Source: a phage
Direction: 5' to 3' (one strand)
DNA length: 44,330 nucleotides
Sequence record: PZ527900.1
In this document: in pieces, positions 29,116 through 35,665 of the stretch
Position numbering within the stretch: the stretch's first letter is position 1
Layout of the letters: each line of letters opens with the position of its first letter
The notes under the pieces: model-generated
What the model saw: the letters and a program-made list of their open reading frames with translations, nothing else
What the model was told of the DNA's origin: nothing
Database searches by the model: none
Position numbers and translations under genes: made by a program

Positions 29116-29401
29116 ACATGCAGCTACAGAAGATGAGGTTGGCATCCTACATGGTGCTATTACCAAGATGTTCAACAAGAAAGCACAGGCAATACTGGAC
29201 ACTATAGAAGGGGACCCAGATGCAGCACTAGCTTTGGTATCCGGTAAGGATATTGGTGCCATGTGTAAGTGGGTTCTTGACAATGGAATTACAGCCACAC
29301 CTGCTGCACAGCAGGAAGAATCCAAGCTGTCTAAGCGCCTCAAGGCTATCCGAGAGGCATCCAGTGGCAAGATTATTCATTTTACAAAAGAGGATAACTA
29401 A
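29099..29401 (+). CDS. terminase small subunit (by position)
   Basis: 100-aa ORF directly upstream of the large terminase; GTG start with GGAGG upstream. Contains promoter P6. Confidence 0.6.
   Translation: MSVHNKHAATEDEVGILHGAITKMFNKKAQAILDTIEGDPDAALALVSGKDIGAMCKWVLDNGITATPAAQQEESKLSKRLKAIREASSGKIIHFTKEDN
29188..29214 (+). promoter_or_regulatory. phage RNAP promoter P6, intragenic
   Basis: AATACTGGACACTATAGAAGGGG inside the small terminase gene; the codons encode ILDTIEGD. Confidence 0.6.
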
Positions 29402-31299
29402 TGGCTAAGGCAAGAGAATCACAAGCGGAGGCTCTTGCCAGATGGGAGATGCTACAGGAATTACAGCAGACCTTTCCTTATACAGCGGAAGGTTTGCTCC
29501 TCTTTGCAGACACAGTTATTCATAACTTGATTGCAGGCAACCCTCATCTGATTCGTATGCAGGCTGATATATTGAAGTTCCTATTCTATGGACACAAGTA
29601 TCGCCTCATCGAAGCGCCCCGTGGTATCGCTAAAACTACATTATCAGCAATCTATACAGTCTTCCGTATCATCCATGAACCACATAAGCGTATCATGGTT
29701 GTATCTCAAAACGCCAAGCGAGCAGAGGAAATCGCTGGCTGGGTGGTGAAAATCTTCCGTGGCCTAGACTTCCTTGAGTTTATGCTACCGGATATCTACG
29801 CAGGGGACCGTGCCTCTGTTAAGGCATTTGAGATTCATTACACCCTACGTGGCAGTGACAAGTCGCCTTCTGTATCTTGTTACTCGATCGAAGCAGGTAT
29901 GCAGGGTGCTCGTGCTGATATTATCTTAGCGGACGATGTTGAGTCGATGCAGAATGCTCGTACCGCCGCAGGCCGTGCATTGCTTGAGGAGTTGACCAAG
30001 GAGTTTGAATCTATCAACCAGTTTGGTGATATTATCTACCTTGGTACCCCTCAGAACGTAAACTCTATCTACAACAACCTGCCTGCTCGTGGCTACTCGG
30101 TTCGCATCTGGACTGCACGTTACCCTTCAGTGGAGCAGGAGCAATGTTATGGTGACTTCCTTGCACCTATGATTGTGCAAGATATGAAGGACAACCCAGC
30201 ACTTCGCTCAGGTTATGGTTTGGACGGTAACAGCGGAGCACCTTGTGCCCCTGAAATGTATGATGATGACGTCCTTATTGAGAAGGAAATCTCGCAGGGT
30301 GCTGCTAAGTTCCAGCTCCAATTCATGCTTAACACTCGCATGATGGATGCTGACCGCTACCCTCTACGGCTGAATAACCTTATCTTTACCTCATTCGGTA
30401 CGGAGGAAGTCCCTGTGATGCCTACATGGAGCAATGACTCTATTAACATCATTGGCGATGCACCTAAGTATGGCAACAAGCCTACAGACTTCATGTATAG
30501 ACCTGTGGCCCGTCCCTATGAATGGGGTGCTGTTACTCGCAAGATCATGTATATTGACCCAGCGGGTGGCGGTAAGAACGGAGATGAAACGGGTGTAGCG
30601 ATTGTCTTCCTGCACGGAACATTCATTTATGTGTATCAGTGCTTCGGTGTACCGGGCGGATACCGAGAATCGTCCCTGAATCGCATTGTGCAGGCCGCAA
30701 AGCAGGCAGGGGTTAAAGAGGTATTCATTGAGAAGAACTTTGGTCATGGCGCGTTTGAGGCCGTAATTAAGCCGTACTTTGAACGGGAGTGGCCTGTCAC
30801 TCTGGAGGAGGATTACGCCACAGGACAGAAGGAATTGCGTATCATTGAGACGCTGGAGCCACTCATGGCGGCGCACAGGCTCATCTTTAATGCCGAGATG
30901 GTCAAGTCTGACCTTGAGTCAGTACAGCACTATCCACTTGAACTACGCATGTCCTACAGCCTTTTCAATCAAATGTCGAACATCACGATTGAGAAGAACA
31001 GCCTCCGGCATGATGACCGCTTAGACGCGCTGTATGGCGCTATACGGCAATTAACTTCTCAGATAGACTATGACGAGGTTACACGGATTAATCGCCTCAG
31101 AGCGCAGGAGATGCGCGATTACATCCAAGCCATGAACACACCTCACCTACGCAGGGCAATGCTCTATGGGGATTATGGAACTGAGCGAAGAGTGACCAAC
31201 ACCTCTGTAGCGATGCAGCAGCGGGTTTACGGTCGGAACTACCGGAATAAGTCCTCCAATAGAAATACAATTTCTGCAAGGATTTCAAGGACTTATTAA
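29401..31299 (+). CDS. terminase large subunit (T7 gp19-like)
   Basis: 632 aa; ATPase P-loop-like PRGIAKTT and Walker B ADIILADDVES; C-terminal nuclease region. Confidence 0.9.
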   Translation: MAKARESQAEALARWEMLQELQQTFPYTAEGLLLFADTVIHNLIAGNPHLIRMQADILKFLFYGHKYRLIEAPRGIAKTTLSAIYTVFRIIHEPHKRIMVVSQNAKRAEEIAGWVVKIFRGLDFLEFMLPDIYAGDRASVKAFEIHYTLRGSDKSPSVSCYSIEAGMQGARADIILADDVESMQNARTAAGRALLEELTKEFESINQFGDIIYLGTPQNVNSIYNNLPARGYSVRIWTARYPSVEQEQCYGDFLAPMIVQDMKDNPALRSGYGLDGNSGAPCAPEMYDDDVLIEKEISQGAAKFQLQFMLNTRMMDADRYPLRLNNLIFTSFGTEEVPVMPTWSNDSINIIGDAPKYGNKPTDFMYRPVARPYEWGAVTRKIMYIDPAGGGKNGDETGVAIVFLHGTFIYVYQCFGVPGGYRESSLNRIVQAAKQAGVKEVFIEKNFGHGAFEAVIKPYFEREWPVTLEEDYATGQKELRIIETLEPLMAAHRLIFNAEMVKSDLESVQHYPLELRMSYSLFNQMSNITIEKNSLRHDDRLDALYGAIRQLTSQIDYDEVTRINRLRAQEMRDYIQAMNTPHLRRAMLYGDYGTERRVTNTSVAMQQRVYGRNYRNKSSNRNTISARISRTY

Positions 31300-31320
31300 T
31301 TACTGGACACTATAGAAGGA
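31296..31320 (+). promoter_or_regulatory. phage RNAP promoter P7
   Basis: TAATTACTGGACACTATAGAAGGA overlapping the terminase stop codon. Confidence 0.75.
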
Positions 31321-31455
31321 AGGCCAAGAGAATAAGAGAATAATAAGGATAATATAGGTTAACCTAGGTTATATAGGTATGCCTTAGTATGGGTGTACTC
31401 CTGTACACCCTATTCCTTACTTCCTTACTATAGTTAACTATGAATAGGAGATATG

Positions 31456-31734
31456 ATGGCTAACGAATATAGTGATCAGCCACTTACAGGCCGATACGAT
31501 AGAAAACAGGTACAACCAGTTAGTGAACACTTAATGGTTCCAAGTGTTAACACTGACATTGAACTATATAATCCAGCAAAACAAGCTAGTGTTATTAATG
31601 ACACAACAAAGTCTGGCAAGCAGCTTGGAGCTATGATTGTAACAGGAATGGGTGTCCTGATGCTAGCTCGTGGAGGTGAACCAACAAGCAAGTGGGACCA
31701 GACAAAGACAGCAGAGATTATTGTTCCAGCCTAA
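31456..31734 (+). CDS. hypothetical protein, paralogue A of a 3-gene family
   Basis: GGAG upstream; shares motif SGKQxGAM(I/V)V...P..(K)WD with the next two genes. Confidence 0.55.
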   Translation: MANEYSDQPLTGRYDRKQVQPVSEHLMVPSVNTDIELYNPAKQASVINDTTKSGKQLGAMIVTGMGVLMLARGGEPTSKWDQTKTAEIIVPA

Positions 31735-31749
31735 CAAGAGGAGAAAGAT

Positions 31750-32037
31750 ATGCCTAAGTATGGAGATGCAAGCACTGTAACAGGACAGTCATTCCGTGTT
31801 AAAGATGTTCAAACGATTGCAACTGCACTGCCACTACCTGTTGTAGCAGAAGCAGACCTTAAATCCAAAGCGCACCCAATTAACATCCACCATCTTTCTG
31901 GTAAACAAAAAGGTGCTATGGTTGCGGTACAGAAGGTGGATGGATCGCTATATATCGCTGTAGCACGAGATGCACTTCCTGAGTCACCTTGGGATGCCAC
32001 GACCATGAATGTTGATGCTGTTACCCCAGCGGAGTGA
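31750..32037 (+). CDS. hypothetical protein, paralogue B
   Basis: AGAGGAGA RBS; LSGKQKGAMVAV...PESPWDAT. Confidence 0.55.
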   Translation: MPKYGDASTVTGQSFRVKDVQTIATALPLPVVAEADLKSKAHPINIHHLSGKQKGAMVAVQKVDGSLYIAVARDALPESPWDATTMNVDAVTPAE

Positions 32038-32722
32038 TACTATCGTGTTAGGTATTACAGGACAACGAGGCGTAAGCCACAGAGCTAAGGTTGCCACGGA
32101 AGTGGCTCCTATTGTTGATATCTCAGAAGTATCTGACGTTAACTCTTATCTAAACCAAAAGTACCTATCAGGTAAACAGGAAGGATATATTGTTCTAACT
32201 AAGAAAGGCTCACGTCACTCATTGTATGCTGCAACAGGCCCTAAGCCAGAAGACAAGTGGTTGCCTTTAGAGCAAGCAATTCTACCGGATTCAAGTGCGT
32301 TAGAGTTAATTGACACCATCAATACTGAAGTTGCAAGTGCAAGCGATACGGTAGAAGTTAATGTAACAAAAGAAAGAACTGTGTGTATCCAGACACCTAT
32401 GAAAGATCTGGCAGGTACTACAGTTTACAGGCAAGAATTGACTGCTAACATTAACCTAACCATTAATGAAAACGGAAGCCCAAGCGATACAGTTAAATTA
32501 AACATATCCATTCCTAATTTGCCAGGAACATCTAGTGGGTCTTACTATACAGTGGATAATGTGCTGTGTACCTCTTTTGGTGGTGACAGTCCCGTTGTTG
32601 CTAATATAGATGTTGATAAGGCTAACACTAACTTGATTGCTGTTACACTCCGTAAAGAGACGGCAACAGATATCAAGCTGTCTCTGGTGATTAGGTGGTC
32701 AATGCCCGTGGAGGTAGTATAG
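32009..32722 (+). CDS. hypothetical protein, paralogue C with beta-rich C-terminal extension
   Basis: LSGKQEGYIVL...PEDKWLPL; C-terminal half has the internal repeat SASDTVEVNVT / SPSDTVKLNISI. Start uncertain (ATG 32009 or 32015, or GTG 32045). Confidence 0.5.
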   Translation: MLMLLPQRSDTIVLGITGQRGVSHRAKVATEVAPIVDISEVSDVNSYLNQKYLSGKQEGYIVLTKKGSRHSLYAATGPKPEDKWLPLEQAILPDSSALELIDTINTEVASASDTVEVNVTKERTVCIQTPMKDLAGTTVYRQELTANINLTINENGSPSDTVKLNISIPNLPGTSSGSYYTVDNVLCTSFGGDSPVVANIDVDKANTNLIAVTLRKETATDIKLSLVIRWSMPVEVV

Positions 32723-33066
32723 TGCTTAACAAATACTTCAAGCGTAAAGAATTTTCTTGCCGTTGTGGATGCGGTACATCTACTGTTGATGCTGAGTTAC
32801 TACAGGTAATCACAGATGTGCGTGAGCACTTTGGTGCTCCTGTAGTTATCACCTCTGGTCATCGCTGTGCCAAGCACAATGCCAACGTGGGCGGAGCTAA
32901 GAACTCCATGCATCTTACTGGTAAGGCTGCTGACATTAAGGTGTCTGGCATCTTACCCTCTGAAGTGCATAAGTATCTTACTGATAAGTATCAAGGCAAG
33001 TATGGTATTGGTAAGTATAATTCCTTCACACATATTGATGTACGAGATGGGTATGCACGATGGTAA
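32719..33066 (+). CDS. endolysin, peptidase M15 family (zinc D-Ala-D-Ala carboxypeptidase-like)
   Basis: SGHRCAKHN...MHLTGKAADI...FTHIDVRD is the M15 zinc-binding signature; GTG start with GGAGG 5 nt upstream. Confidence 0.65.
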   Translation: MVLNKYFKRKEFSCRCGCGTSTVDAELLQVITDVREHFGAPVVITSGHRCAKHNANVGGAKNSMHLTGKAADIKVSGILPSEVHKYLTDKYQGKYGIGKYNSFTHIDVRDGYARW

Positions 33067-33639: not shown

Positions 33640-33662
33640 ATTTACTGGACACTATAGAAGAG
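33640..33662 (+). promoter_or_regulatory. phage RNAP promoter P8 (tailspike cassette)
   Basis: GATTTACTGGACACTATAGAAGAG. Confidence 0.8.
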
Positions 33663-33742
33663 ATAAAGATAGTGCCGTTCTTTTGAGCGGCCTATTACTA
33701 GCCAATCTTCATAGGGAGGGTTGGGAAGTAATAGGAGATAAC

Positions 33743-35665
33743 ATGGCTAGTATCACTAAACCCAGGACAACAGGTATTATTCATAAAGACACATCTTTAT
33801 ACGAATACCTAGAATCCTACTCTACAAAAGGTGCAGTACAACCAGAGCAGTTTGGTGCAGACAACAAGGGTATTACATATTCTACAGAAGCACTGCGTTC
33901 TACATTCGTATTTGCTAAAGAGCATGGTATGAGGGTAGTAGGTTCCGGTGTCTATCTTGTAGATGGCTCAATAGAGACACATGGTGTACCTTTTGACCTC
34001 TCTGCTGCAACATTAAAACTTGATGGTGCTAAGATGGGAGGTGGCGTGAAGACGCTACTCATTACAGACGAAGAAACACAAGTTATACCTAATTTTGACT
34101 TAGGTGGGATGGTGAAAGGTCAGTCTGGTACTTTGACGCTTGCAACTTATGATGAGTGCTCTGTAGGTATCGACTCAACTGAACCGGCTTATCTTCGTGC
34201 AATTACACCTTCATATACTTTGTATAAGAAGGATATACTTGTTATCAATAAGAATGTACATCGTCTTACTCCTGCATTCTATGATATTACTTCTCCTGTA
34301 ACATTGACAGTTAGACCACTACGTCAAGAGATACATTGTAAGCTGCCTAAGTTCGTATTACATACAACTCCATCGGGTAGGTTTGGTTCTCTAGTGTATG
34401 TTGCTCGAAACAATGTAAAATTATCTGGTGGTTACGTGGATTCTGACACGATGAGTGTTGCTCTTTCCAGAAATATTCTTGAATCATTCATTCGTGCAGA
34501 GAAGTGTGCATTTTTGACTGTACTAGATGTACACTCAAAGATGAGCCCACTAGACAGCGGATACCAGGTTGTAGTAGACCAAGTACACGGTCTTACTATG
34601 GAACGATGCACGGACCAAACAGGGTGGAGGTTACAGGATGGTAACTACTTCCGCAATACGATGATTCGTGATTGCCAAGGAAGGGGTATAGGTGGTCATG
34701 CTATGACTTACAACTATTCTGTTGAGAACTTCACTAATTGCTATAATGGTATTCATCTTACTGGTGAGGGTTACTTGAGTGTCAAGAACATCCGCAATGT
34801 AGACTATGGTGGTAACTTGAAAGATGGTGGTATAGTTAAGATTCGTGAAGACTATGGTACAAGCTGGGATGGTGATATTTATATTGATGGCGTAGATATT
34901 CTGGTACAACCTGTGACTGGTTCACCTGATGCACTTTCTGTGCTTCTTATGTGGGCATCCTACACTGGGACACAGGACTATACGCAGGAAAGCGTACAAT
35001 GGGGTAAGTCTGTTACTGTCAAGAATGTACACATAACCAACCGTACATCAAATCGTATCAACTTGACACCTGTGGAATGGAAAACATCTCTTGCTCAGAA
35101 CGTTACACCTCCCTCTCAGATCAACGTAGATACAGTAACTATGTCTGGTGTCGGTGATGTGCGAGTATTACCTCTTGGGTTTGATTTATATTCAGATGCT
35201 AAAGTGGCACAAGTCACTACCATCATGAATGTATCCAATATCGATAACAAGTTAGGTACGGTGGATATAGCTCAATCTATTGCAGATGGCACTAAACCTA
35301 ATATCCGTAATGCTATTGTGCGTAACATTAGCAATTACCGTGGACTCGGTTTAACCCTAAGTGTTCCCGATAAATGCTACACTTATGTTAAGGACAGTGT
35401 TGTAAACTTTATAAATGGTGCAGCTAAGGATGAAGGTAAGCACTACTTTTATAATTGTCGAATGACAGGCACTGAGTTTAGCACTAACCAAGGTTTTAAC
35501 CACTTTTACAATTGCCATTTTGATACCGCTAAAGCGGACTTCAAGGTAGGTACAAGGGTTACTGTAGGTTGTCATATTAATAATGGTGCGGCTATTACAG
35601 GCGGTGGCGGTGGGGTTACTTCTGCTGCTGCATTATGGTCCTATAAGGACTCCACTTATGCTTAA
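33743..35665 (+). CDS. tailspike protein 1, pectate-lyase-like beta-helix (probable polysaccharide depolymerase)
   Basis: N-terminal VQPEQFGADNKGITYSTEALRS is typical of pectate-lyase-type tailspikes; Gly/Asn/Val/Thr-rich repetitive composition; no T7 gp17-like N-terminal anchor. Confidence 0.75.
   Translation: MASITKPRTTGIIHKDTSLYEYLESYSTKGAVQPEQFGADNKGITYSTEALRSTFVFAKEHGMRVVGSGVYLVDGSIETHGVPFDLSAATLKLDGAKMGGGVKTLLITDEETQVIPNFDLGGMVKGQSGTLTLATYDECSVGIDSTEPAYLRAITPSYTLYKKDILVINKNVHRLTPAFYDITSPVTLTVRPLRQEIHCKLPKFVLHTTPSGRFGSLVYVARNNVKLSGGYVDSDTMSVALSRNILESFIRAEKCAFLTVLDVHSKMSPLDSGYQVVVDQVHGLTMERCTDQTGWRLQDGNYFRNTMIRDCQGRGIGGHAMTYNYSVENFTNCYNGIHLTGEGYLSVKNIRNVDYGGNLKDGGIVKIREDYGTSWDGDIYIDGVDILVQPVTGSPDALSVLLMWASYTGTQDYTQESVQWGKSVTVKNVHITNRTSNRINLTPVEWKTSLAQNVTPPSQINVDTVTMSGVGDVRVLPLGFDLYSDAKVAQVTTIMNVSNIDNKLGTVDIAQSIADGTKPNIRNAIVRNISNYRGLGLTLSVPDKCYTYVKDSVVNFINGAAKDEGKHYFYNCRMTGTEFSTNQGFNHFYNCHFDTAKADFKVGTRVTVGCHINNGAAITGGGGGVTSAAALWSYKDSTYA

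Follow-up and report, generated by a model that had tools for sequence, protein, structure and literature searches.

Three paralogous late genes behind the terminase of a Vectrevirus as candidate virion surface proteins of a misnamed domain family

What do the three small, consecutive genes between the large terminase and the endolysin of a K1E-like phage encode? We addressed this question in a 44,330-nucleotide (nt) stretch of phage DNA, sequence record PZ527900.1 (the window, whose positions serve as coordinates throughout), which is a Vectrevirus, a K1E/SP6-like coliphage. The 1.4-kb region that holds the genes is 93% identical to Escherichia phage PSK8 and ~90% identical to mutPK1A2, and many Vectrevirus (K1E/K1-5-like) genomes match it. 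A sequence-only reading had described the genes, here called A, B and C, as tandem duplicates of unknown function, and had offered virion decoration, an accessory role to the tailspike, and exclusion or anti-defence as candidate functions. We find that A, B and C are members of a domain family that is known and barely characterised, not a new kind of system, that they are very probably virion structural proteins and that, somewhat less surely, they are anchors or decorations of the capsid surface. The genes, with the ribosome-binding signal on which the start of the third depends, are as follows.

31453..31734, + strand: gene A, 93 amino acids (aa), anchor domain only (open reading frame; phrog_2725, E=9e-30)
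31750..32037, + strand: gene B, 95 aa, anchor domain only (open reading frame; phrog_2725, E=4e-42)
32031..32034, + strand: Shine-Dalgarno sequence GGAG of gene C, read in the sequence, inside the end of gene B
32045..32722, + strand: gene C, 225 aa (phrog_32357, E=1.5e-112; phrog_2725, E=4e-14 over the N-terminal domain)

Pairwise alignment by BLASTP, a check that had been proposed with the original description, gave significant matches between A and B (36% identity over 80 aa, E=8e-8) and between B and C (33% identity over 76 aa, E=2e-5), and no significant match between A and C. All three proteins match phrog_2725 over positions ~4-99, with the E values listed above, and phrog_32357 matches C along its full length. 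These results lie well above chance and bear out the claim of three paralogous genes between terminase and endolysin; judged by sequence comparison, A, B and C are paralogs with a common domain of ~85 aa, referred to here as the anchor domain. In an alignment of 19 family sequences from several phage genera, including A, B and C, residues N45, S50, G51, K52, G55 and W81 (B numbering) are invariant in 19/19, and the SGKQxGAM...W motif singled out earlier is contained in these positions. Most members of the alignment also carry a terminal (I/V)TPA; A ends in IVPA and B in VTPAE, and C has ILPD at the corresponding place, followed by its extra domain.

Gene C consists of an N-terminal anchor domain (aa 1-~80, 32045-~32285) and a C-terminal domain of ~140 aa (~32286-32719), and its start is most likely GTG 32045, not the ATG at 32009 of the mechanical open reading frame. 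The GTG is preferred because GGAG lies 10 nt upstream, because the phrog_32357 match begins at residue 13 of the longer frame, and because the annotation of PSK8, the nearest relative, uses the equivalent GTG, so that the third gene as first drawn (32009-32722) stands with a corrected start. The internal repeat ascribed to C is likewise upheld in part: a single 18-residue motif, TINxE..S.SDTV.xN[VI][TS], is repeated with a score of 40 vs 24±4 in shuffles, a score that is the best of many cut points and thus weak evidence, and the repeat is not a domain duplication. Gene A opens with ATGATG, and its start may be either 31453 or 31456, the latter giving 92 aa; gene B is represented by 74 database clusters. 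A and B lie in one reading frame, parted only by TAA and five codons (31732-31752). The K1E genes gp41/gp42 likewise share a frame, as do all three PP1 genes, while those of SP6 and Kp7 differ, and the shared frame of A and B may be due to chance.

The most direct evidence on function comes from Klebsiella phage Kp7, whose gp45, gp46 and gp47 were identified in purified virions by sodium dodecyl sulfate-polyacrylamide gel electrophoresis and mass spectrometry, in a study in which the T7-like phages Kp9 and Kp11 are without proteins of this type (bioRxiv 10.1101/2024.05.19.594906). In GenBank record ON148527 (Kp7, Molineuxvirinae) the syntenic genes are annotated twice as 'minor capsid protein' and once as 'minor capsid protein with Ig-domain'. 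A, B and C are true homologs of these proteins, and the two phages, both of them Molineuxvirinae, carry the same three-gene array between the large terminase (TerL) and the endolysin, with two short proteins and one long protein that has an extra C-terminal domain. Identities span 30-48%, at 43% between A and Kp7 gp45 (E=1e-21), 48% between B and gp46 (E=4e-18) and 30% between the N-terminal domain of C and gp47 (E=1e-8). The extra domains differ, that of gp47 being immunoglobulin (Ig)-like, whereas the ~140-aa domain of C is unrelated to it and without a known fold. The Kp7 data show virion association, and the capsid location is the authors' label. With direct homologs recovered from purified virions, decoration of the virion is the role that we favour among those first suggested.

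The architecture of the wider family points in a similar direction. An exhaustive profile search among 1.84 billion representatives recovered 274 relatives at E<=1e-3. Short members of ~90 aa consist of the domain alone, and long members add unrelated C-terminal modules, including an Ig_3 module (protein 5 of K13PH07C1S, near-identical to Kp7 gp47, and P0260), an Sf6-type tail-needle knob (P0187, P0245), a collagen triple-helix repeat (the protein encoded at L014:1916-2680), a phi29 head-fibre C-terminal segment in the distant member P0265 (PF11133, 26.5 bits vs a Pfam cut-off of 24.6) and, as judged by eye, fibre-like repeats (Alpheus protein 68). Domain searches of long members gave two Sf6-type knobs, two Ig domains, one collagen triple helix and this one phi29 head-fibre segment. 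A, B and C themselves have no PF11133 match. Several long members, C among them, have C-terminal domains without any match; the C-terminal domain of C gave no Pfam or PDB match and is part of a wider metagenomic domain family. A relation of this domain to the Sf6-type knob as a diverged copy was considered and rejected (hhalign probability 0.2%). Modules of the kinds found on long members are usual in virion parts that are exposed or trimeric and thus support a position on the head surface, and since collagen and knob modules need three chains, their attachment speaks for trimerisation of the anchor. Knob-bearing members, and some members with helical inserts, retain the ITP(A/V) tail at their very C-terminal end, and its retention past inserted modules suggests that the tail runs back to the protein base.

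In 39/150 of the best representatives, three tandem copies of the domain are joined in one chain of 260-320 aa. These fusions include P0127-P0134 and about 30 others, as well as the genes at L013:735-1634 and L014:1050-1907 from uncultured phages; in both fusion contigs with upstream sequence the fusion lies directly after a TerL gene whose product is 44-46% identical to the TerL of the window. The triple fusions support self-association of the domain in general, not an A:B:C heterotrimer. A correspondence of fusion domains 1, 2 and 3 to the A, B and C types in that order was rejected, as the mapping is not consistent.

Further arrangements were seen in individual genomes and contigs. The gene after the triple fusion in L014 (L014:1916-2680) encodes a fourth family member, in which the anchor is followed by a collagen-like Gly-X-Y run of ~40-45 residues and a further domain. 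Gajwadongvirus-type phages encode a separate Sf6-type needle-knob protein of 203 aa between TerL and a single family member (ECBP5 gp49, L010:1865-2476; L007:179-793), and this protein has been named 'head fiber' by other authors; P0187 and P0245 instead carry this knob within the family protein itself, with the ITPV tail at the very end. In P0215 (L015:114-482), a protein of 122 aa, the anchor domain is fused to an Acb2/Tad1-type hairpin (Pfam E=7.8e-11), and the protein matches PDB chains named 'p26' (8h2j, 8ixz; E=5e-6 over 33 residues), which we take to be the phage protein Acb2, directed against the cyclic-oligonucleotide-based antiphage signalling system (CBASS). This fusion occurs on a single 2.6-kb contig only and may represent an anti-defence module displayed on the virion or delivered with it, or else a chimera of the assembly.

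To place A, B and C among their relatives, we compared gene neighbourhoods and the groupings of the individual copies. The domain is present in 166-177 phage records (tblastn), the hosts of which include Escherichia, Klebsiella, Salmonella, Proteus, Pectobacterium, Vibrio, Aeromonas, Edwardsiella, Pseudomonas, Erwinia and Ralstonia. Wherever the upstream gene is visible in the annotated genomes and contigs that we examined, among them K1E, SP6, PP1, Kp7, K13PH07C1S, ECBP5, Alpheus, MGD2 and two uncultured contigs, the family lies downstream of TerL, either adjoining it or parted from it only by a knob (head-fibre-like) gene, and A, B and C share this setting, directly after TerL and upstream of the lysis genes. 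Copy number varies from one (ECBP5, an Edwardsiella phage) through two (K1E; Alpheus, with one short and one long) to three (Kp7, K13PH07C1S, MGD2, the window, and PP1, where all are short), and SP6 has two copies and an eroded third.

In a neighbour-joining tree and by pairwise scores, the paralogs fall together according to their place in the array: A with K1E gp41, SP6 gp42, Kp7 gp45 and PP1 gp43; B with K1E gp42, SP6 gp43, Kp7 gp46 and PP1 gp45; and C with Kp7 gp47 and SP6 gp44. This grouping indicates that the duplication is ancient and that every copy was kept, and the A/B/C split, on these relationships, predates the Molineuxvirinae genera. The tandem duplication proposed earlier is thus real as to paralogy and is not recent, each copy having its own positional orthologs in K1E, SP6, PP1 and Kp7; the suggested comparison with SP6 and the K1 phages, in which K1E gp41/gp42, K1-5 gene 42, SP6 gp42/gp43/(gp44+gp45) and PP1 gp43-45 occupy the same slot after the terminase, yielded orthologs paralog by paralog, of A and B throughout and of C in SP6. 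The arrays differ in their third gene, as PP1 has three short copies, K1E has lost the C-type gene altogether, and in SP6 the gene is split and eroded: SP6 gp44 (81 aa) retains the anchor domain in truncated form and gp45 (55 aa) aligns with the final third of the C-type C-terminal domain (E=1.6e-13), which marks the pair as a decayed C-type gene, internally deleted and split. The C-terminal domain of C is present in 12 phage records only, always at the locus after TerL. Identity to K1E is 93-100% for TerL and 83% for the endolysin, compared with 47% for A (gp41) and 74% for B (gp42); such faster divergence of A and B is as expected for an exposed accessory.

Predicted structures were obtained with AlphaFold2. 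For B alone, modelled from an alignment of 23 sequences, the mean predicted local distance difference test score (pLDDT) is 67, with 75-81 in the core, and the model shows the first ~30 residues as disordered, then one strand, one short helix and a sheet of three strands. The triple-domain protein P0128 was modelled with a mean pLDDT of 87.4, a predicted template modelling score of 0.83 and domain cores at 92-96, and this confident model implies a defined packing of the domains on one another, for which pseudo-threefold symmetry would be a plausible form. Sequence and profile searches of PDB with B, C, ECBP5 gp50 and two profiles (A1, A5) returned no meaningful match, and a search of BFVD returned mainly family members, all of them 'uncharacterized'. 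The anchor domain has no sequence or fold similarity to lambda gpD, the oligonucleotide/oligosaccharide-binding fold of phage L Dec, T4 Soc or the base of phi29 gp8.5.

On the reading that we favour, A, B and C would be late-expressed accessories on the outside of the T=7 capsid, that is 'minor capsid', decoration or head-fibre proteins. The ~85-aa module, with a flexible N-terminal arm bearing a TG(Q/K)...P(I/V)V signature, a small alpha/beta core with N...SGKxxG...W and a terminal (I/V)TPA tail, may act as a self-associating and probably trimeric anchor that docks on the virion surface. A and B, which are anchor alone, could serve as cement or as occupants of binding sites, and C could combine the anchor with an outward-facing, environment-exposed domain of ~140 aa as a dispensable head appendage, this domain being a putatively swappable accessory in the place where other phages have Ig, knob, collagen or fibre modules. 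The ancient, position-conserved split into three suggests different quasi-equivalent capsid sites, or co-assembly. From these data we infer that the proteins sit on the capsid rather than the tail, form trimers and have a stabilising function, and that C serves in adhesion, and we hold the trimer and the role in capsid stability with less confidence than the capsid-surface location itself. Rather doubtful, in our judgement, is the most specific version, in which the domain is a structurally new trimeric capsid anchor and, in many Autographiviridae, a plug-in display platform for exchangeable head modules (Ig, Sf6-type knob, collagen, phi29-type fibre tip, the C-terminal domain of C and, in one case, an Acb2-like cyclic-nucleotide-sponge hairpin), and in which the three paralogs of the window form a heterotrimer or occupy separate quasi-threefold sites of the T=7 lattice.

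A capsid location is favoured because of the Kp7 label, the head-fibre-type modules and the precedent of phage PhiM1. In PhiM1, the two genes directly after TerL encode capsid decoration proteins verified by cryo-electron microscopy, the short one consisting of the capsid-binding motif alone and the long one of motif and fibre, and the two take different quasi-equivalent sites; PhiM1_47 and PhiM1_48 are Ala-rich helix-turn-helix dimers at the 2-fold axes (PMC11440229). The likeness of our locus to these alpha-claw/alpha-paw proteins of PhiM1/HRP29 is an analogy of arrangement only, namely a slot after TerL and before the lysis genes and tailspike, filled with short and long paralogs. Unlike the helix-turn-helix homodimers, the domain of the window is predicted to combine a short helix with a beta hairpin sheet and is probably trimeric. 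Homology to the PhiM1 alpha-claw proteins was considered and rejected, as their sequences show no relation to the present family and they occur in Pectobacterium/Dickeya phages only. As to the proposed oligomeric state, the phi29 head fibre gp8.5, lambda gpD and phage L Dec are trimeric capsid add-ons, and the proposed small trimeric capsid base, with or without a protruding fibre, would resemble them.

Several observations weigh against this picture. The Kp7 evidence comes from one preprint, and for the name 'capsid' we found neither a supporting map in print nor any published structure of the Kp7 capsid; we also found no experiment on the window phage or on any Vectrevirus, and papers on UAB_Phi78, KBNP1315, PP99, AerP_220, Aeromonas phages and phiRIO-1 did not test proteins of the family. 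The profile search of PDB found no solved structure that contains the anchor-domain family, and the trimer, like the threefold packing supposed for P0128, is deduced from fusions and attached modules. The fusion domains have no ordered A/B/C mapping, so that no A:B:C heterotrimer is shown, and the stoichiometry is not fixed, with two copies only in K1E and one only in ECBP5. In addition, C is without the terminal TPA motif in the 19-sequence alignment.

The same evidence can be set against other accounts of these proteins. They may be virion-associated and yet sit on the tail or neck, as small trimeric accessories of whisker, collar or adaptor type close to the tailspike apparatus, much as the tailspike-accessory role first suggested would have it. 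The tailspike gene (33683-35665) does belong to the late region that holds A, B and C, tail fibres too carry knob, collagen and fibre-repeat modules, and mass spectrometry cannot tell head from tail. However, the one group to have studied homologs in virions calls them capsid proteins, with the tail proteins listed apart, a phage promoter of its own at 33642 sets the tailspike gene apart from the A-B-C operon, the closest positional analogue, in PhiM1, is on the capsid, and the knob protein next to the family in Gajwadongvirus is called a head fibre by others. We therefore do not favour a tailspike accessory and consider a tail or neck location unlikely. Less likely again, and in our view improbable, is that A, B and C are non-structural late proteins (an assembly or packaging helper, or factors for lysis timing, exclusion or anti-defence) and that their detection in Kp7 reflects contamination. 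Such proteins might well be small, fast-evolving and co-transcribed and tightly coupled with the lysis cassette, as A, B and C are, with the stop codon of C overlapping the endolysin start, and the metagenomic P0215 joins the domain to an anti-CBASS hairpin; yet three separate family members from purified virions were seen as bands on gels, the modules joined to the domain are in their great majority structural, and the Acb2 fusion is known from its single contig. The exclusion or anti-defence role offered in the sequence-only reading also found no support among database models, A, B and C having no match in NCBIfam, Pfam or PADLOC, the last being a weak test in that it models defence and not anti-defence.

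A third account is the one written in the databases, where RefSeq and phrog_2725 label the family as acetyl-CoA acetyltransferases (thiolases). Thiolases are enzymes of ~390 aa with a catalytic Cys/His/Cys set. Apart from the label, repeated in many records, nothing speaks for this assignment: A, B and C have no Pfam match of any kind at E<=1 and no NCBIfam match, their lengths of 93, 95 and 225 aa amount to a quarter to little over half of a thiolase, and structure prediction gives a small domain with a beta hairpin. The label looks like an annotation error that has been copied from record to record, and the enzymatic reading, to which we assign a negligible probability, is effectively refuted. 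The description of the genes as being of unknown function therefore needs qualification, in that the family is poorly characterised and at the same time known, misnamed in RefSeq and PHROGs, and covered by virion proteomics in one preprint; the homology detected leads to a family that is recognised and not to a well-characterised one.

The family is of relevance beyond the window. About 170 phage records carry the family, most of them labelled 'hypothetical' or wrongly 'acetyl-CoA acetyltransferase', and a metabolic-gene label misleads in the dossiers of therapeutic phages, with many K1 and Klebsiella therapy candidates affected. The T7 supergroup is usually taught as being without decoration proteins, and a site-specialised decoration system, if confirmed, would be unusual in this otherwise 'naked' group. 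The family, together with PhiM1/HRP29, suggests that the post-terminase slot is a general 'head accessory' locus in Autographiviridae, and a self-assembling head anchor that tolerates unrelated C-terminal modules, if that is what the domain is, would offer a ready display scaffold for SP6-/K1E-type phages. The points of note in this family are its pervasive misannotation, its plug-in architecture, the fusion of three domains in one chain and the fact that neither a solved structure nor a relative in fold was found.

The remaining features of the locus concern its expression and its neighbours. On the + strand the order is TerL, promoter, hairpin leader, A, B, C, M15 endolysin, holin, spanin, the promoter at 33642 and the tailspike gene.

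29401-31299, + strand: large terminase (TerL) gene, open reading frame
31300..31319, + strand: phage RNA-polymerase promoter, K1E/SP6 type, exact match to TTACTGGACACTATAGAAGG
31391..31410, + strand: GC-rich 5' leader hairpin GGGTGTAC-TCCT-GTACACCC, terminator-like match, present in the centroid fold
32722..33066, + strand: endolysin (Peptidase_M15_3; Pfam PF08291, E=4.5e-33), 83% identity to K1E gp43
33683-35665, + strand: tailspike gene, open reading frame

Nine TTACTGGACACTATAGAAGG promoter sites occur in the window vs 0.01 expected, and the site at 31300-31319 is the seventh of the nine, in agreement with the earlier placement of the genes in the late region behind promoter P7. The next phage promoter, at 33642, precedes the tailspike gene, and the promoter at 31300-31319 probably drives A-B-C-endolysin-holin-spanin. 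The hairpin at 31391-31410 may be a partial terminator or a processing site.

The promoter and the 130-nt leader (31300-31452, hairpin included) are 83-85% conserved in dozens of Vectrevirus genomes, and in these same genomes the downstream A, B and C genes no longer match as DNA; with its leader conserved and its genes not, the locus looks like a conserved expression cassette with exchangeable cargo. The mechanical open reading frame of the endolysin begins at GTG 32695, inside gene C, and PSK8 uses a start equivalent to GTG 32722, which is supported in the window by GGAGG at 32710-32714. This GTG overlaps the stop codon of C (taGTG), implying translational coupling of C and endolysin. In K1E a homing-endonuclease gene interrupts the large terminase gene (40A / 40.5 / 40B), and the terminase gene of the window is intact.

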